From: Moorena sp. SIO4E2
GTDB taxonomy: Bacteria; Cyanobacteriota; Cyanobacteriia; Cyanobacteriales; Coleofasciculaceae
Length of the DNA stretch: 33,033 nucleotides
Assembly: GCF_010671945.1 (NCBI RefSeq)
Contig: NZ_JAAHIE010000031.1
Span: forward strand, 1 to 33,033
Direction: 5' to 3'
Each line of letters begins with the position of its first letter. Position 1 is the first letter of the stretch. Shown piece after piece: positions 4,617-32,016 of this stretch. The position numbers were made by a program, and so were the translations under genes. The notes beneath the pieces were generated by a model. It was not told where the DNA came from and did no database searches. It saw nothing but the letters and a program-made list of their open reading frames with translations.

Positions 4617-4654
4617 AGTTTTTTTCCTTTGATTTCCCTGGGCTTGGTCAGGGC

Positions 4655-4712
4655 AATTGTCATTAGTTATTAGTCATTGGTCATTGACCATTAGCCATTA
4701 GTAACTGAATAA
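4655..4712. repeat. STRR heptamer repeats (CATTAGT/CATTGGT/CATTGAC/CATTAGC) in the rplX-rplE spacer
   Basis: Direct reading of tandem heptamers with single-base variants. Confidence 0.85.
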
Positions 4713-5075
4713 TTAGTCAATAATCTCACCAGTTTTTTTGAGCATCCGCACCTTCCGACCATCGTCGGTAAAGGTATAGCAGATGCGGCTAGCAATTTTT
4801 TCTTTATTCGAGTAAAGCATAACGTTGGAGCTATGGATTGGAGCTTCAAACGTAGCAATTTGACCTTTCTCACCTTCTTGTTGAGGCTTGACATGCTTAG
4901 TTTTGACGTTAACTCCTTTGACTACTACCTTGCTAATTTTGGGTAGCGTCCGCAAAATTTCTCCAATTTTGCCTTTATCTCGACCGGCAATCACTTGTAC
5001 CGTGTCGCCCTTTTTAACGTGCATTTTGTAGCGTAATGGGGTATCAGTTTGTGCCTTCTGGTGTTTAATTGGCAT
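4713..5075 (-). CDS. rplX: 50S ribosomal protein L24
   Basis: 120 aa. [24 protein letters not shown] is the L24 KOW motif. The start overlaps the rplN stop. Confidence 0.9.
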
Positions 5076-6644: not shown

Positions 6645-7370
6645 CTAGTCATTTGAGCGGTCTTCAAACTGCTGGCGGCGTTTTGGCTGACGGCGACGAG
6701 GTTGAGCTGTGTTAGGGGTAGGCTTTTCTTCTTGACCGGGAATCACTTCCCCTTTGAACACCCAAACTTTAATGCCCAAAATTCCATAAATGGTTTGGGC
6801 CGTTTTGTAGGAATAGTCAATATTTGCCCGGAGGGTATGGAGGGGCACTCGTCCTTCACGAGTCCACTCGGTTCGGGCAATTTCAGCTCCATTTAACCGA
6901 CCACCTACCTGAACTTTAATCCCTTGGACATCAGCCCGCTGAGCCCGCTGAATTGCTTGACGAACCACTCGTCTGAAGGAAACTCGGCGCTCTAGCTGTT
7001 GGGCAATGTACTCGGCAATTAGGGTAGCATCTGCATCCACCCGTGATACTTCCACGACATTGATACGAATCTGACGATTGTTGCCCAGGGATTTTTGCAG
7101 ACCGACACGCAAAGACTCAATACCACTGCCACCACGACCAACAACTACTCCAGGTCGAGCTGTATGAATTTCTAAATCAATCTGGTCAGCTTTGCGCTCA
7201 ATCCGGATGTCGGAAATTCCAGCATTATTGAGGTTTTTGTCAACATATTGTCTGATTTGATAATCTTCCTGCAACAGAAGCGGATAACGCTTTGAGTCGG
7301 CAAACCAGCGAGAGCGATGCTCTTGCGTGATACCTAGCCGAAAACCAATTGGATGTATTTTCTGTCCCAC
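6645..7370 (-). CDS. rpsC: 30S ribosomal protein S3, with a basic Pro/Arg/Gln-rich C-terminal tail
   Basis: 241 aa. [24 protein letters not shown]... with a KH-domain body. The tail reads ...[31 protein letters not shown]. Confidence 0.93.
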
Positions 7371-11110: not shown

Positions 11111-11582
11111 TCTCGTTCAATTGCGTTGACTGGTCAGAAAAGGCTATTCAACTTGCCTGACTTCGCTGGGACTTAAGTTGTTAATAACTCAGTATCCCTT
11201 GATCCACGAAATTGTAAGCAATTATTGACCTAAAGCAGACCCAAGAACTGATGGGACTTGTTTATACCTAACTGTCTTTGATCTACTTTAGCCCTGATGC
11301 CAAACAAACGCCTGGTATGCTGTCTATATTGTCTTGCCTCGAACCTACTTCTCAGCCCACAGCACACCCAGATCATCAGTTGCTGAGGAAGCAACTGTCA
11401 TAATGTCACTATTATATAGTATATAGTATTTTGCTAAGGGTGTCTAGTTAGTTTGAGAATTAGTTTGAGAAAAATTTGCTTGCTGTATGGATTTATGTGA
11501 AATCGGGGGATTCGGAGCTCGAAGGATGCGTTCGCGTAGCGTAGCCCTTCGGGCTAATCGCATAGTCTTGAAACCAAATTAT

Positions 11583-14289: not shown

Positions 14290-14535
14290 TTAGTTAGAAG
14301 TTGGCGGACTAATCAGACCATTAGCTGCACCAAATAGATTGATGGGATTTTTGCCATCGGTAATCAAAACACTCTGGATACCAAGTGCTTCTAGAAGTCT
14401 TGCCTGCATTTCCGGACCTGCTTGTGCGATCGCTTGAATGGTTTGAGGACCAATTGCTTCTACTTTCTGTCGGTATTCTTCACTCTTAATGTGAGCCTCG
14501 CAGTCAAGTCCCGAAAAATTAGGACAAAACTGTAT
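14290..14535 (-). pseudogene. 3' fragment of a major vault protein (MVP) homolog: cap-helix end plus cap-ring. No start codon; separated from its 5' part by the tnpB element.
   Basis: Minus-strand translation reads ...[69 protein letters not shown]. Metazoan MVP has ...[50 protein letters not shown].... The frame is closed by a stop at 14536-14538. Confidence 0.8.
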
Positions 14536-14555
14536 TTAATAGTGCGAACTGGACA

Positions 14556-14584
14556 TTGACAATTTTATAGCGCTAGACTATAAT
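14556..14584 (+). promoter_or_regulatory. Consensus sigma-70-type promoter (TTGACA-17 nt-TATAAT) upstream of tnpB
   Basis: TTGACA at 14556-14561, a 17-nt spacer, TATAAT at 14579-14584. It lies about 30 nt upstream of the tnpB start. Confidence 0.6.
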
Positions 14585-14614
14585 GGCAGTATATAGCAAA
14601 AGCTGTACACACCG

Positions 14615-16102
14615 TTGATGATGCAAAAGAAAGTAGGCGCAGTAAAGAAGATATCGACTCAGGTCGTCCCAGTTGTAGGGATAGCTAAGTCGGTTGAGCT
14701 TGAGCTGTTGTCTACGATGAAAAAACTAGGCGTCGTCAGGTCTGAGTCTTACAACAAGCTGGGTAGTATAAGTCATTGGGGACTTGACTGGAAAAAAGCC
14801 TACCCAGAAGTCAGGGACTTCAGGAAGCCTGAGTCCCTGGGCTTGCCTTCCAAGTTAATGGAATGGACTGTCAGTGATGTAGCTAAAACTATCACAGCTC
14901 AACAAGCGGCTTCCATTGAGGCAGTCATAAAAAAGATCTATAAGAGGTTTCCTGGAAAGGAAAACCAGAAGATCAGAAAGGATATCTCTAAGCAACTCAA
15001 AACTTCAGCTTTTCTGGATAATCCACTATTGCACAGACTTGTAAGGAAAGAGTTTCAGAGAGGACATTCTTGGGTCAAGAATCAAGTTGTATACCAACAA
15101 GGAGGATACTCGTGTAAACGATTGTCTCGTTATACTTATCAATTGGAATTAGCTGGAATCAGAAGAGGAAAAAGAAACAAACTAATAGTTAGGTCTAATC
15201 GAAATATTAAAGGACAGATTAGACTAATATACAACTCTCTACTGGCAAGATTTGAGATTCATTTTTTGGTTAATCACGGGACAGCTGAGATTCCTCCTGA
15301 ACGTCGAGCGATAGGAGTAGACAAGGGATACACCGAGGCTTTTTATGATTCAGATGGTCAGGCACACGGGAAGAACCTGGGCAAAATAGCAACCATAAAA
15401 TCCGTTCGCGTAGCGTGGCCTTTTGGCCATCGAATATGCGCCAAAAATCGGAACAGAGGAAAACTCTGGGCAATACATAGGAAGCTAGAAAAAATAGATC
15501 CAGCTAAATCAGCTCGGATACTGAAAAATAATCTGAGTCGAAAAACAGAAAACAGTCGTTACAGAAGAGATCAATCAGAGTTGAGGGCGATTATAGGGGC
15601 TGCTTCTAAATCCCTCTTCAAAGGAGAATCTCTAAGAATTTTTGCTGAGGATTTAACGCAACCAATCAAAAATAAACGCCAGTCAAAGGCTATGTCTCGC
15701 AAGTTGAATAGCTGGATGAAAGGAGAAATGCGGTACTCCTTGCAGAAATGGGCTAATTGGACTGGTTCGGTTGTGACAGAAGTCCAGCCAAGCTACACGT
15801 CGCAAATTGACTCCTTTTCTGGCACCTTATTGGGAGCAAGGATTGGGGACAGTTTTATCAGATTTAATGGGGTCGTGTTGCAGGCTGATCACAATGCTGC
15901 GAAGAATATCCTTGCTCGTGGTACAGATCAAGGAATCTCCCGGTTTATGACTAGGGTTGAAGTGCAGGCAGTATTGTTGCGTCGTACTGCGCGTTTCTTA
16001 GAAGGTATGGATTTGACTTTAGCTGACGCGGTTAAGCTAGGATGGCTTGACCGCAAGCATGCCAAAACTCAAGCTTTTAAGGAACTCCTCACCGGGATGT
16101 GA
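14615..16102 (+). CDS. tnpB: IS200/IS605-family TnpB-like RuvC nuclease (OrfB). Divergent variant lacking the zinc-finger cysteines. First ATG at 14618.
   Basis: RuvC-I is GVDKGYTEAFYDSDG, RuvC-II is LRIFAEDL...SVVTEVQPSYTSQID, RuvC-III is LQADHNAAKNI. The four expected ZnF Cys positions read SFSG...RFNG instead. The N-terminal 230 aa have a WED/REC-like layout. Confidence 0.8.
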   Translation: MMMQKKVGAVKKISTQVVPVVGIAKSVELELLSTMKKLGVVRSESYNKLGSISHWGLDWKKAYPEVRDFRKPESLGLPSKLMEWTVSDVAKTITAQQAASIEAVIKKIYKRFPGKENQKIRKDISKQLKTSAFLDNPLLHRLVRKEFQRGHSWVKNQVVYQQGGYSCKRLSRYTYQLELAGIRRGKRNKLIVRSNRNIKGQIRLIYNSLLARFEIHFLVNHGTAEIPPERRAIGVDKGYTEAFYDSDGQAHGKNLGKIATIKSVRVAWPFGHRICAKNRNRGKLWAIHRKLEKIDPAKSARILKNNLSRKTENSRYRRDQSELRAIIGAASKSLFKGESLRIFAEDLTQPIKNKRQSKAMSRKLNSWMKGEMRYSLQKWANWTGSVVTEVQPSYTSQIDSFSGTLLGARIGDSFIRFNGVVLQADHNAAKNILARGTDQGISRFMTRVEVQAVLLRRTARFLEGMDLTLADAVKLGWLDRKHAKTQAFKELLTGM

Positions 16103-16223
16103 GGAACGTCTAGATAGATGAGCGGGAGGCTTGACTCCAATTGCTACTTGACCGCTCCTCACTCAGACATCAATAAAATGCACCTTGGCCGTTTTATTCG
16201 GTTTTATCCCGATTGATGACGGT

Positions 16224-16697
16224 TTAAGAGTATTCCTTAGCTCTTGCTTCTGCTGTTGCCTGACCTGTAGACTCAATGGCTATATTTTCTGCCTTTGACA
16301 CTCCCCGTCCTAGAAGAACGGGGAGTGTCAAATCCCCTACCAGTTTCTCGTTTGGATAAAGGGGAAACGGATCTTGCGCGAAACGAATTTCCAGATCACC
16401 GTAGCGCAGTCGAATTTGACCATGCTGATCAGCAATGGGTTGACCGTCTTCATCCCGGAGTAATGGATTAGCCACCACACAATAATATCGAGGCGGCACA
16501 ATAATCATCGGTTCAGGTTTTAAGATCAGCCGCTCGTGATCCCGAAGGGTAATGGTTTGAGGACCAACCTCCAGTCGCGTAACACCAGTATTGTTGTCTA
16601 GCACATGAATAAACTGTTGGGGCTTGATGCGAATCACTTCACTAGTTGTTCTAGGCACTTCCATTTTCTTCTCTGTTTTACGCTCAGTTGTAGTCAT
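16224..16697 (-). CDS. Major vault protein homolog, 5' portion: MVP repeats 1-2 plus a short shoulder/cap-helix-like tail. The gene is truncated/disrupted by the tnpB element.
   Basis: 157 aa. [29 protein letters not shown]...[14 protein letters not shown]...[37 protein letters not shown] compares with metazoan MVP [29 protein letters not shown]...VTVPPRHYCTVANP...[37 protein letters not shown]. The tail [17 protein letters not shown] resembles MVP AVESTGTAKAEAESRAE. Confidence 0.8.
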   Translation of the reverse strand: [157 protein letters not shown]

Positions 16698-18561: not shown

Positions 18562-21462
18562 TCAATTGCGCAGAATCAACCGTTGCCGATGAACATGCAA
18601 CAAACGAAACTCCCGCTGCGCCACCTGCTCCAACATATAAATAATGTGCTCTGGTCGCAACATCGTGCCATCATTCAAACAACTCCCCACATACCGCAAA
18701 ACCACCCCAGACTCCGCAACCTCCTCTTCACCATCTTTGGATTTTTGGGGTTCGATCACCTCGAAGTCAAATAAGCGATCGCATAAATTCACCCACTGCT
18801 TCTTCCCCGACTTCGTAAACCGCTCCCACCAAATTTCCTTACTACCTTTGATTGCTTCAATCCAACCCTGCCACTCTTCCCAAGACGCTTCTGATATTAC
18901 CTCAACTCGAATCAAATACTCAGCTCTCTCCAACAGCTGAGTTCCCGCAGGTTCCTTCAAATCCACTGCTTCAACCCCATACACCGGAATCTCTTCAGGC
19001 AACTGAGACACCAGCCTTTCCCTAAACTCCTCAACTGGCATTTTCTCAGTTAACTCAAACTCCACAATCTCCCCACTGCTAGACGCTCCCAAGGGCAACG
19101 CATTAGCAATCATAATCCGAGCATTAGCCCGAAACCCCCCACTATATCGAATTGGCAGTGACGCCCGTCTTACTGCTCTCTCAAACAGACTTGCCAAATC
19201 CAGATGACCCAACAAGGTCATATCCCCCAACTTTCCAAACCAAACCCGCAGCCGCTGATCCTTATTAGTATTGGGTTTAAAGTGACCAGCAAATTGCGGA
19301 ATCTGTGGCGGGTCAATCACCACATTATGACCAAAATCAATCCCACACACACCACAGTGAGAACACCCATCAAAGGAACAATCCGGTACCGTTGCTGCAT
19401 CTAACGCCCGTTGTAAATCTTCCTTGAGCCAATTCTTATCAATTCCCGTATCAATATGATCCCAAGGCAAGGGAGCATCAAGGGCGTTAAGGGTTGACGG
19501 TTGAAGGTTAGCTGGTTGAAGGTTAGCTGGTTGAAGGTTAGAAGGTTGAAGGTTAGAAGGTTGAAGGTTAGAAGGTTGAAGGTTAGAAGGTTGAAGGTTA
19601 GTTGGTTGAAGGTTAGTTGGTTGAAGGTTAGCTGGTTGAAGGTTAGTTGGTTGTCGGTTAGTTGGTTGTCGGTTAGTTGGTTGTAGGTTAGCTGGTTGTA
19701 GGTTAGCTGGTTGCTCTGAACTTTCAACCTTGGCCTTTTGGCCACGCTTCGCGAACAACCTTCCAACTTGCAACTCTTCTACACCCGCCATCACGTTCCA
19801 TTCGCCATTTTCTACTTGGCGATATTTCCAGGTCAGACCTGATGAAGCGATCGCATTTTCCCAAGCAGCAAATGCCCGATCCAAGCTTTCCATCCAGGAG
19901 TCCATCCCTGCCCCCAATTCCCAAGCACGGCGCACCACCGCACTTAAGCGTCTGTCACCCCGTCCCACGAAATCTTCCATGGCCGAAATCCGAACATCGG
20001 TGTAATTAACCTTCACCCCCCTGATCTGACCAAATACTTGTTTGAGTAATTCCTGCTTGCGTTCAAACTCCGAAGTCGATACGGAATGCCACTGGAATGG
20101 GGTGTGAGGTTTTGGGGTAAAATTAGAAACAGTTATGTTAAACTTAATGGTTTTTCTGCCTTTAGCACGGCACTCCTGCTGCAACCAACGCACCGTTTCC
20201 GCAATCCCCAACACATCCATATCCGTTTCACCGGGCAAACCAATCATAAAATAGAGCTTGACTTTCTCCCAGCCTTGCTCAAATGCCGTCTTTACTCCCC
20301 TGAGCAGTTCTTCATTAGTCAGTCCCTTATTAACAATATCCCGCATCCGCTGAGTTCCTGCTTCTGGGGCAAAGGTCAAGCCACTCTGCCGATTGCCCCC
20401 TAGGATATTGGCAATATTCTCATCAAAGCGGTCTACCCGCTGACTCGGTAGGGACAAGGAAATATTCTGATCCTTAAGACGATTTTTGATTTCCATCCCC
20501 ACCGCTGGTAGAGCCAGGTAATCCGAACAACTCAGGGATAGAAGGGAAAACTCGTTATACCCTGTAGCACGCATCCCTTGTTCAATAGCTTCCACCACTT
20601 TTTCTGGTTCCACATCCCGCGCTGGTCGAGTCAGCATCCCAGGTTGGCAGAAGCGACAACCCCGAGTACAGCCCCGTCGCACTTCGATCTTGAGTCGGTC
20701 ATGAACCGTTTGGATATAGGGTACTAGTCCAATAGCATAGGCAGGCATCGGTGTAGCCACACGCCGCAAAATCCGCTTCGGCACATCAGGGCGGTTGGGT
20801 TTAACTGAGCCATCCTCAGTCATATCATAGAATTGGGGGACATACACCCCTGGTATCTGAGCCAAATCCAGGAGTAACGCTTCTCGACTTAAGCCAGCTG
20901 CTTTGCCTTCTTCGATTACTAAGCCAATCTCTGGCAACAATTCTTCCCCATCGCCAAGATCAACAAAATCTAAGAAATCAGCATAGGGTTCAGGATTCGA
21001 TGTCGCCGTTTGTCCACCTGCAAAAATTAGGGGTATTTCCGATATATCAAACTGAGCACGGTCTTTCCAGGTCAGGGGAATTCCTCCCAAATCCAACATT
21101 TCCAAGATGTTGGTTGCCCCTAATTCATAGCTAAGGCTAAAGCCAATAATATCAAAATCTTTCAGAGGTCGCCGATTCTCGACAGCAAACAGAGGGGTTT
21201 GAGTGGAACGTAATTTAGCTGCCAAGTCTGGGGCAGGTAGATAGGCGCGATCGCATAATTGCCTAGGTTGATAATTCAATATATTGTAGAGGATGATATG
21301 GCCTAAGTTAGAAGCCCCCACTTCATAGATTTCTGGATAAGTCAATACCCAGCGTACCTCAGCTTCTTCCCAAGGTTTATGGACTGCTCCCAACTCGTTA
21401 CCTAAGTAACGGGCTGGTCTGTTGATGTCTGGTGTTAATATTTCCTCTACAGTGATTGCCAT
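18562..21462 (-). CDS. B12-binding-type radical SAM protein (TIGR03960-like) fused to a DUF2344/TIGR03936-like C-terminal domain, with a 15-copy pentapeptide linker
   Basis: 966 aa. The N-terminus MAITVEEILTPDINRPARYLGNELGAVHKPWEEAEVRWVLTYPEIYEVGASNLGHIILYN is typical of this radical-SAM family, and CTRGCRFC is the SAM cluster motif. The C-terminal 270 aa (RLRVWFGKLGDMTLLGHLDL...) are the usually separate DUF2344 partner. Confidence 0.8.
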   Translation of the reverse strand: MAITVEEILTPDINRPARYLGNELGAVHKPWEEAEVRWVLTYPEIYEVGASNLGHIILYNILNYQPRQLCDRAYLPAPDLAAKLRSTQTPLFAVENRRPLKDFDIIGFSLSYELGATNILEMLDLGGIPLTWKDRAQFDISEIPLIFAGGQTATSNPEPYADFLDFVDLGDGEELLPEIGLVIEEGKAAGLSREALLLDLAQIPGVYVPQFYDMTEDGSVKPNRPDVPKRILRRVATPMPAYAIGLVPYIQTVHDRLKIEVRRGCTRGCRFCQPGMLTRPARDVEPEKVVEAIEQGMRATGYNEFSLLSLSCSDYLALPAVGMEIKNRLKDQNISLSLPSQRVDRFDENIANILGGNRQSGLTFAPEAGTQRMRDIVNKGLTNEELLRGVKTAFEQGWEKVKLYFMIGLPGETDMDVLGIAETVRWLQQECRAKGRKTIKFNITVSNFTPKPHTPFQWHSVSTSEFERKQELLKQVFGQIRGVKVNYTDVRISAMEDFVGRGDRRLSAVVRRAWELGAGMDSWMESLDRAFAAWENAIASSGLTWKYRQVENGEWNVMAGVEELQVGRLFAKRGQKAKVESSEQPANLQPANLQPTNRQPTNRQPTNLQPANLQPTNLQPTNLQPSNLQPSNLQPSNLQPSNLQPANLQPANLQPSTLNALDAPLPWDHIDTGIDKNWLKEDLQRALDAATVPDCSFDGCSHCGVCGIDFGHNVVIDPPQIPQFAGHFKPNTNKDQRLRVWFGKLGDMTLLGHLDLASLFERAVRRASLPIRYSGGFRANARIMIANALPLGASSSGEIVEFELTEKMPVEEFRERLVSQLPEEIPVYGVEAVDLKEPAGTQLLERAEYLIRVEVISEASWEEWQGWIEAIKGSKEIWWERFTKSGKKQWVNLCDRLFDFEVIEPQKSKDGEEEVAESGVVLRYVGSCLNDGTMLRPEHIIYMLEQVAQREFRLLHVHRQRLILRN
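19493..19712. repeat. 15-bp tandem repeat array, about 14.7 copies (GGTTGAAGGTTAGCT and variants), in-frame inside the radical-SAM gene
   Basis: Visible direct repeats. The coding frame reads QPANL QPANL QPTNR QPTNR QPTNL QPANL QPTNL QPTNL QPSNL x4 QPANL x2 QPSTL. The other two frames give the artifactual repeat ORFs 19401-19766 and 19501-19686. Confidence 0.9.
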
Positions 21463-22469: not shown

Positions 22470-22592
22470 TAGGTGCGCTTGACCCATTAAGAATTAAATT
22501 CGCACCTATTGGTGCGCGCCTCCAAGGGCGAATAAATCGCCCTTGGGTCGCACCTATTGGCTTTGCCAACGCTACGCGAACGGGTCGCACCT
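22470..22592. repeat. Nest of three or four small palindromic dispersed repeats. All carry AGGTGCG(C/A)...GTCGCACCT-type termini.
   Basis: AGGTGCGCTTGACCCATTAAGAATTAAATTCGCACCT, then GGTGCGCGCCTCCAAGGGCGAATAAATCGCCCTTGGGTCGCACCT, then GCTTTGCCAACGCTACGCGAACGGGTCGCACCT. Confidence 0.75.
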
Positions 22593-31735: not shown

Positions 31736-32016
31736 GCTTAGGTTTCTTTTATTCTGACGGCACCTGAAGTAGAGTGAGCCATTCGCGTAGCGTGACTCAA
31801 AGGCCAATGTTCACGGCTGACCACTGAATGCTTACAATAAAACAGGTAAGCATTGGTTTAAGCTGAGTTACTTGAGCTGACCGCTGATAGCTGACCGCTG
31901 AACGCGCACGCGTGTGCGTAGCACATAAGCTGAATACTTGTTCTTTGTTGCTTGTTCTTTGTCAATAGTCCATTTTCAATTAACAAATTCAATTCACAAA
32001 TGACCAAGGACCAAAT

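Follow-up and report, generated by a model that had tools for sequence, protein, structure and literature searches.

The window analysed here, a 33,033-nt stretch of DNA from the cyanobacterium Moorena sp. SIO4E2 (contig NZ_JAAHIE010000031.1), carries a tnpB gene whose product has the TnpB/Cas12f fold with the catalytic D-E-D residues intact and all four zinc-binding cysteines gone. We consider it quite likely that this gene belongs to one copy of a multicopy insertion sequence (IS) of the IS607 family, a copy without the transposase gene tnpA, which would encode a zinc-finger-less TnpB and an omega-RNA scaffold working together as an RNA-guided homing nuclease. Within this reading we infer the nuclease activity, the target-adjacent motif (TAM), the processing of the omega-RNA and the tolerance of an 8-aa insertion that distinguishes the window copy from most of its relatives.

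The gene had been described, in an earlier interpretation made from the letters alone (the sequence-only reading), as a 495-aa open reading frame (ORF) for a TnpB-like RuvC nuclease. The frame is indeed open over 495 codons from a TTG, and a public protein of identical sequence, annotated as "transposase" or "zinc ribbon domain-containing protein" and attributed to Moorena sp. SIO1G6, is 493 aa long, which places the start at the ATG. All the RuvC motifs quoted earlier are present: GVDKG (with D236), FAEDL (E345), PSYTSQID and ADHNAAKNI (D425). HMMER aligns GVDKG, AEDL and ADHN residue for residue with the three RuvC motifs of AsCas12f and OsCas12f, bringing D236, E345 and D425 onto the catalytic residues of both enzymes. 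An alignment of 111 homologs, which takes in cyanobacteria, purple sulfur bacteria and actinomycetes, shows D236 and D425 to be invariant and E345 nearly so. The Pfam profile Cas12f1-like_TNB (PF07282) passes its threshold (28.3 bits against a cut-off of 26.3). Its RuvC-III motif, ADHN (QADHNAA), puts the protein among the "derived" TnpBs, those with xADxN.

At the CxxC...CxxC positions of AsCas12f and OsCas12f, both the HMMER alignments and the family alignment place D399/S402 and R416/N418. Residues 396-423, the TNB or "zinc-ribbon" segment, include neither cysteine nor histidine, and the sole cysteines of the protein, C167 and C275, both lie far from this segment in sequence. The zinc-finger cysteines have thus been lost altogether, as the sequence-only reading held, and not merely shifted. 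Within the ribbon, D399 and D412 hardly vary among the 111 homologs. R409 and D412 are, by the family alignment, not replacement ligands, because both also occur in relatives that keep their cysteines.

The loss is not peculiar to the window copy. A protein search over 5.8 billion proteins returned 611 matches, of which the 120 listed all come from Moorena or Symploca, with 69-100% identity. The PxYTS motif could be located in 117 of these 120, and none of the 117 paralogs has a CxxC at the zinc-finger positions; in every one of them the ribbon reads DSxxGTLLGxRxGDxF(T/I)xFxGVVLQAD. The family is small and divergent, since HMMER, run exhaustively over 1.84 billion cluster representatives, recovered only 636 related 50%-clusters. 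Among 85 full-length representatives of such clusters, 42 have at most one cysteine at the segment and 41 have at least four. When these representatives are aligned, the canonical CxxC...CxxC appears in distant relatives (at most about 32% identity) and is missing from the closer ones; in a rough neighbour-joining tree the cysteine-poor representatives form essentially one clade, 35 of the 42 retaining D-E-D. These comparisons indicate that the cysteine loss is a derived trait of the whole clade and not a lesion of the window copy, so that the earlier description of the protein as "unusual" overstates the case. Pairwise ratios of nonsynonymous to synonymous substitution (dN/dS) between the window gene and 36 paralogs have a median of 0.086 (range 0.07-0.11), with dS saturated. 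Together with the conserved catalytic residues, these ratios show that selection maintains the protein.

An AlphaFold2 model built on the 111-sequence alignment (mean predicted local distance difference test, pLDDT, 90.2; predicted template-modelling score 0.82) shows a WED strand, a helical REC insertion (25-146), the WED barrel (157-224), RuvC and a C-terminal helical tail (447-494). All 50 of the Foldseek matches listed from the PDB are Cas12, TnpB, Fanzor or TranC proteins, led by AsCas12f (3e-10), Fanzor2, the ISFba1 TnpB (8iaz, 2.8e-07) and the ISDra2 TnpB; fold and structural neighbours bear out the assignment to the TnpB-like RuvC nucleases. The N-terminal 230 aa had been called non-canonical, which holds for their divergent sequence and fails for their fold, since in the model this is a canonical WED/REC arrangement. 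The RuvC part of the model holds a small ribbon of three short strands (406-423), with mean pLDDT of 94-97 over the 10-residue blocks covering the segment, and the ribbon is thus predicted to persist without its cysteines. Low confidence is restricted to the N-terminus, residues 265-271 (within the 8-aa insertion) and residues 354-363. After RuvC-III the model adds, with high confidence, a helical tail of about 55 aa (residues 440-495; DNA 15932-16099), in which V450, L454, R457 and T458 are kept across the clade and whose coding sequence adjoins the start of the putative RNA scaffold.

The ends of the element were set by BLAST and by alignment against 79 related loci, and the features placed in this way are collected in Table 1. 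The element starts with TCGCAGTCAAG and finishes with GGTTTAAGAGTATTCC, somewhat outside the bounds of 14500-16223 proposed earlier. Neither terminal inverted repeats nor a convincing inverted pair between the left and right ends was found in it, and the 33-kb window holds no further copies of either end. Across 31 copies the left flank has the consensus TTAG-YC (G at -1 in 30 of 31, A at -2 in 21 of 31). The right end finishes with CC or TC, and among the 24 copies that have both ends this dinucleotide recurs immediately before the left end in 22; one of the remaining two is a case of a 1-nt alignment shift. A matching dinucleotide at both junctions is a published signature of the IS607 crossover mechanism (PMC10711439).

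Table 1. Features of the tnpB element and of its host flanks, in positions of the window
Feature	Position	Strand	Basis
MVP-like gene (see text), C-terminal 68 codons and stop codon (host flank)	14291..14497	-	93% identity to the C-terminus of P0378
Left flank GAG + CC, target/TAM-like motif and crossover dinucleotide	14493..14497	+	Flank consensus of 31 copies, empty site
Whole insertion sequence, putative tnpA-less IS607-family element, 1739 bp	14498..16236	+	Limits of the similarity to more than 30 Moorena/Symploca copies
Left end common with tnpA-bearing copies	14498..14555	+	Alignment to L016, L022, L030, L034, L024 and L023
Element-internal sigma-70-type promoter TTGACA-17-TATAAT, palindrome TAGCGCTA in spacer	14556..14584	+	12/12 consensus match
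tnpB coding sequence	ATG 14621..16102 (493 aa); TTG-opened ORF 14615..16102 (495 aa)	+	Profiles, model, Foldseek
In-frame insertion of the dispersed repeat TTCGCGTAGCGTGGCCTTTTGGCC, adds VRVAWPFG	15405..15428	+	Missing at this exact point in most paralogs
TNB ("zinc-ribbon") segment without cysteines, residues 396-423	15800..15883	+	Cas12f zinc-finger alignments, family alignment, model
Putative omega-RNA/reRNA (right-end RNA) scaffold, spans stop codon and right end, finishes with CC (16235-16236)	16086..16236	+	Covariation
Predicted guide region in right flank, TTAGCTCTTGCTTCTGCTGT	16237..16256	+	TnpB/IS607 model
MVP-like gene, N-terminal fragment (host flank)	16237..16697	-	Pfam Vault_2, alignments to MVP fragments

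The window itself has no tnpA, as had been noted. In at least 20 of the 79 related loci, however, an IS607 serine-recombinase tnpA lies directly upstream of tnpB, and this upstream ORF of about 200 aa is the only recurrent protein-coding neighbour of tnpB. Its carriers include copies from Moorena (L016, L022, L023, L034) and Symploca (L024, L030), other cyanobacteria, and proteobacterial and actinobacterial members, and its profile matches are NF033518 (175.6 bits, cut-off 110), Pfam Resolvase and the MerR-type helix-turn-helix HTH_17. The tnpA-bearing copies share the terminus of the window element through GGACA, after which they continue with the ATG of tnpA and the window copy with its promoter. 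Because the tnpA of sister copies shares the left end and the junction dinucleotides match, the comparison identifies the window copy as a tnpA-less IS607 derivative and not as an IS605/IS1341 element. The IS1341-like label given earlier does not survive, and affiliation with IS200/IS605 (IS1341-type elements included), whose members have a Y1 (HUH) transposase as partner and insert 3' of a fixed tetra- or pentanucleotide with no dinucleotide in common, was rejected on the same two points, the sister-copy partner being a serine recombinase and the junctions sharing a dinucleotide; the 79 loci yielded no Y1 transposase. Insertion sites vary among the copies, which are present many times per genome, and no host neighbour is conserved. 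A locus coding for the identical protein was found on the window's own contig only, so there is no sign of a very recent duplication of the exact copy. Some tnpA-bearing copies are decaying, as in Moorena L023, where tnpA (1618-2217) is split into two ORFs by a frameshift or stop codon.

The right end carries the second component of the proposed system. Over the 31 Moorena/Symploca copies, the final 17 coding nucleotides and the 134 nt of non-coding right end form a structure of 37 pairs. In it 97.3% of the cells are paired, a share that drops to 35-46% once the partners are slid. Changes on both sides are seen in 14 pairs (94 cells), and none of 500 shuffles reaches the observed values. One of its helices, helix 1, reaches into the coding region and spans the stop codon. 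Since several pairs are mainly G-U and can form only on the + strand (cols 102-119, GU:20; cols 163-201, GU:27), the structure reads as an RNA in the sense of tnpB rather than as a DNA hairpin. The covariance modelling of the 3' region that the sequence-only reading had proposed as a check supports the structure and carries it further: the model built from the copies has one match in the window, and it also matches directly 3' of tnpB, always on the gene strand, in loci of Scytonema, Iningainema, Stigonema, Iphinoe, Xenococcaceae and Crocosphaera. In the alignment of these distant loci, itself fitted to the model, 29 of the 37 pairs show compensatory changes. The right-end structure is probably an omega-RNA scaffold, one that would be expressed with the gene and processed from its 3' end. 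Such an RNA had been predicted at 16000-16223, and structured RNA does lie there, with an extent supported by covariation that differs from the one predicted (Table 1). In M. bouillonii L034 the right-end RNA region is split (4649-4757, 6869-6962) by about 2.1 kb of inserted DNA, and L020 (4462-4547) and L033 (4545-4631) have an extra partial scaffold copy upstream of the complete one.

The consensus promoter reported upstream of the gene was confirmed at all 12 positions. A promoter-like pair with 17-nt spacing is found at the same position in 25 of the 31 copies, and is perfect in 10 of them, the window copy being counted in both figures; by this comparison the internal promoter is a feature of the family. 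Between the -35 and -10 boxes, at 14567-14574, lies the palindrome TAGCGCTA, often CTAGCGCTAG, which is conserved in other copies. A dimeric repressor might use it as its operator.

The window copy also contains a dispersed motif within its coding sequence, which had been placed at 15403-15428. The motif is there, as an in-frame insertion of 24 nt with slightly narrower limits (Table 1). The repeat has the form TTCGCG[T/A]AGCGTGGCC-nnnn-GGCC and is inserted in frame at just two fixed positions, in 23 of the 120 listed paralog clusters (P0002, P0004 and P0058 among them). The first, site A, is that of the window copy, and the added 8 aa fall in the low-confidence linker 265-271 (pLDDT below 50), which is predicted to be disordered. 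The second, site B, is the codon of the catalytic Glu in RuvC-II, where AEDL becomes AVREAWPTASDL (A-VREAWPT-ASDL) or ...ALDL; it is occupied in L011, L014, L017, L020, L026, L027 and L035. L021 and L035 are identical in the aligned stretches around both positions apart from the site B insertion. The window copy has the insertion at the first position only, with E345 intact. More speculatively, the repeat might be a recurrent switch that disarms copies, driven either by the host or by the element. Elsewhere in the window, further copies of the motif GTTCGCGWAGCGTGGCC, each followed by a short GGCC-type hairpin, occur at 11530-11546, 19740-19756 (-), 22565-22581 (-) and 31781-31797, the copy at 19740 lying inside a 966-aa ORF (18562..21462); the whole 33 kb has 5 matches to GTTCGCGWAGCGTGGCC, where chance would give 0.04.

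The element sits in a gene resembling that of the major vault protein (MVP), and its site could be compared with one that is empty. Through the ortholog protein P0378 we reached its contig, L081 (ENA ERZ505127), from a related strain, which has 95.6% DNA identity to the left host flank of the element and lacks the element itself. The empty site reads ...AATGTGAG-CC-ATAC..., followed by 174 bp and then by ...TTCAG-CC-TTAGCTCTTGC..., the hyphens setting off the dinucleotide; the counterpart of the left flank is GTGAG-CC, and the sequence of the guide region is the one that follows TTCAG-CC. Both AGCC positions match the target consensus. The window element stands between the first AG-CC and the sequence after the second, and the intervening 174 bp are gone. 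On the simplest reading, an insertion at AGCC was followed by a recombinase-type deletion to the second AGCC, or two insertions recombined with each other. Metagenome contigs, scanned for exact matches to the presumed joined empty site, gave none, because the two flanks of the element were never adjacent.

The MVP gene is itself a remnant, in which 123 residues from the N-terminus and about 20 from the shoulder region are followed by the IS and then by 68 residues from the C-terminus. The ORF called "MVP" (16224..16697, -) takes its last four codons and its stop codon from the IS. The MVP pieces fall in frame by chance once the IS is removed, and the joined 222-aa ORF was rejected as an intact gene restored by removal of the element, being a fusion of distant MVP fragments. 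Identity to the intact MVP ortholog ends a second time at 16292, where a perfect hairpin adjoins, and the gene is about 600 codons short of a normal MVP. That hairpin (16293-16333; TTTGACACTCCCCGTCCT-aga-AGAACGGGGAGTGTCAAA, an inverted repeat of 18 bp without a mismatch) marks the junction of the deletion of about 600 codons and is in frame through a 157-aa ORF. The sequence-only reading had the guide extending into a flanking MVP gene; the adjoining flank would indeed serve as guide, but the MVP there is only a rearranged fragment.

Taken together, these data lead us to propose the following mechanism. Full-length family copies with common ends would move the window copy in trans, and the strong internal promoter would drive its tnpB. 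The 3' end of the tnpB mRNA and the right end would fold into the omega-RNA scaffold, with the adjoining flank as guide. The clade has replaced the C4 zinc-ribbon cysteines in RuvC by D/S...R/N, keeping the beta-ribbon, D-E-D and the remaining fold, and TnpB would act, with no structural zinc, as an RNA-guided homing nuclease cutting empty (T)TAG-YC sites joined to a match of the guide. The extension of this proposal to the whole widespread IS607 TnpB clade, as RNA-guided nucleases in which a metal-free ribbon replaces the C4 zinc finger, is one that we hold tentatively, as a serious possibility that we would not yet favour.

Several observations weigh against the proposed nuclease. Zinc fingers are believed to lend stability to Cas12f and TnpB, so that activity without one is an assumption. 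The NCBIfam profile guided_TnpB (NF040570) scores 68 bits, against a curated cut-off of 100, with E=9e-19 over 382 residues (54-435). An Rfam scan of 14300..16500 at an E-value of at most 1 gave chance miRNA-like matches only, with neither RAGATH-18 nor another known TnpB RNA. The right-end GGGTTTATCCC, which is the reverse complement of the left-end GGGATAAA, may be a TnpA binding site and not an RNA element. As judged from the empty site, the flanks were not originally adjacent, 174 bp being missing between them, so that the present pair of guide and TAM is not that of a simple insertion. The 8-aa insertion, even in a loop predicted to be disordered, could impair the window copy.

This last point leads to a rival explanation, in which the family is functional and the window copy is a crippled relic, its protein disabled by the 24-nt insertion and the element a mere passenger. 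The insertion is missing from most paralogs, and the same repeat at its second hot spot replaces the catalytic Glu codon (AEDL to A..SDL or LDL) and so inactivates some copies. The frame of the window copy nevertheless remains open over 493 aa, and the linker that takes up the insertion is predicted to be disordered and joins two helices at a distance from D236, E345 and D425. Moreover, full-length ORFs of 447-506 aa carry the site-A insertion in 9 of the 120 listed 90%-clusters, among them that of the query, and the low dN/dS against the paralogs also argues against a relic, an explanation that we regard as unlikely but worth keeping in mind. That the right-end structure is instead a DNA recombination site for the serine recombinase would fit with the right end carrying TTTATCCC, the inverse of the left-end motif GGGATAAA, and with serine recombinases binding double-stranded sites at both ends. 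Protein-binding sites are not expected to show compensatory changes in long-range helices, however, and neither the strand-specific G-U pairs nor a helix that spans the stop codon inside the coding region favours a DNA site. The two roles can also coexist, and there is only a slim chance that the DNA site accounts for the structure in place of an RNA.

A protein that is nuclease-dead or exapted as an RNA-guided DNA binder, that is, a regulator of the TldR type, would make sense of the zinc-finger loss as a major change to the RuvC insert and of the conserved promoter palindrome, which suggests regulation. This inactivated regulator was rejected, and we rate it as very improbable: D-E-D is conserved, the gene is carried by a mobile element whose ends are defined and which occurs in many copies per genome, and the insertion sites vary with no conserved host neighbour. 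It is less probable again, and to our mind barely credible, that a metal site remains, with other residues (Asp/His) or shifted cysteines as its ligands. The near-invariance of D399 and D412 could suggest one, but the segment lacks both Cys and His, C167 and C275 are distant in sequence, and R409 and D412, being present in cysteine-keeping relatives as well, are not replacements.

Comparison with known systems places the proposed homing nuclease closest to the TnpBs of IS607 elements. For those of ISXfa1 and ISFba1, the TAM beside the left end is AG- or G-rich and the reRNA lies at the right end (PMC10711439, PMC11061315). ISXfa1 (PMC10711439) and ISFba1 (8iaz, PMC11061315) are like the Moorena element in their serine-recombinase partner (here in sister copies), the absence of terminal inverted repeats, the crossover dinucleotide at left flank and right end, a structured RNA at the right end and 3' end of tnpB and an AG motif by the left end, and the ISFba1 TnpB is also alike in fold (8iaz, Foldseek E=2.8e-07). 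By contrast, the Moorena protein is about 100 aa longer and has no C4 zinc finger, its dinucleotide is CC/TC on the tnpB strand, its RNA is not RAGATH-18 (no Rfam match), and most Moorena copies are without tnpA and have a consensus promoter of their own. Cas12f (AsCas12f 8j12/7wju, OsCas12f 9nzq) gives the best structural and sequence matches, with the WED-REC-RuvC-TNB order in common, but comes with a CRISPR array and a CxxC...CxxC zinc ribbon, whereas here there are no cysteines, no array, and a gene within a transposon. With the ISDra2 TnpB (8exa/8h1j), the IS200/IS605 paradigm, the element shares the homing-nuclease architecture, an omega-RNA over the 3' end of the gene and a right-flank guide; ISDra2 differs in its Y1 transposase partner, its DRDXN-type RuvC-III, its C4 zinc finger and its length of 408 aa, which leaves room for a much shorter C-terminal tail only.

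Zinc-finger loss is not without precedent. According to a 2023 survey, the C4 zinc finger is typical of TnpB but has been lost in some branches, and its role in TnpB/Cas12f is "unclear" (PMC10691335). One such branch, RIIIr-4, is a large clade of TnpBs reported to be without a C4 zinc finger, in which the RuvC-III Asp is replaced by His and which is linked to MazE-like genes (PMC10691335). The Moorena protein resembles it in the absent zinc finger; membership was rejected since D425 is kept in ADHN, whereas RIIIr-4 has the RuvC-III His. The cyanobacterial pro-Fanzor IS607 TnpBs (PMC10711439) are likewise IS607-associated and mainly cyanobacterial, and were rejected because they have a DPG RuvC-I and a relocated Glu, as against D-K-G and a Glu in the canonical AEDL position here (PMC10711439). 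A literature search found no paper on the Moorena TnpB. The cysteine-free clade is uncharacterised, but this kind of zinc-finger loss is already in the literature and would not surprise a specialist.

Beyond this, the element would be one more IS family in a transposon-rich cyanobacterium, whose public records already say transposase or TnpB. What gives it wider interest is that a clade with no zinc cysteines, yet with the triad, the putative scaffold, purifying selection and signs of recent mobility, offers a natural test of the need for zinc. With its well-defined ends, candidate TAM and strong native promoter, the biochemical test would be straightforward. If it is true that the clade cleaves with a metal-free ribbon, zinc would be dispensable for cleavage of the TnpB/Cas12f type.

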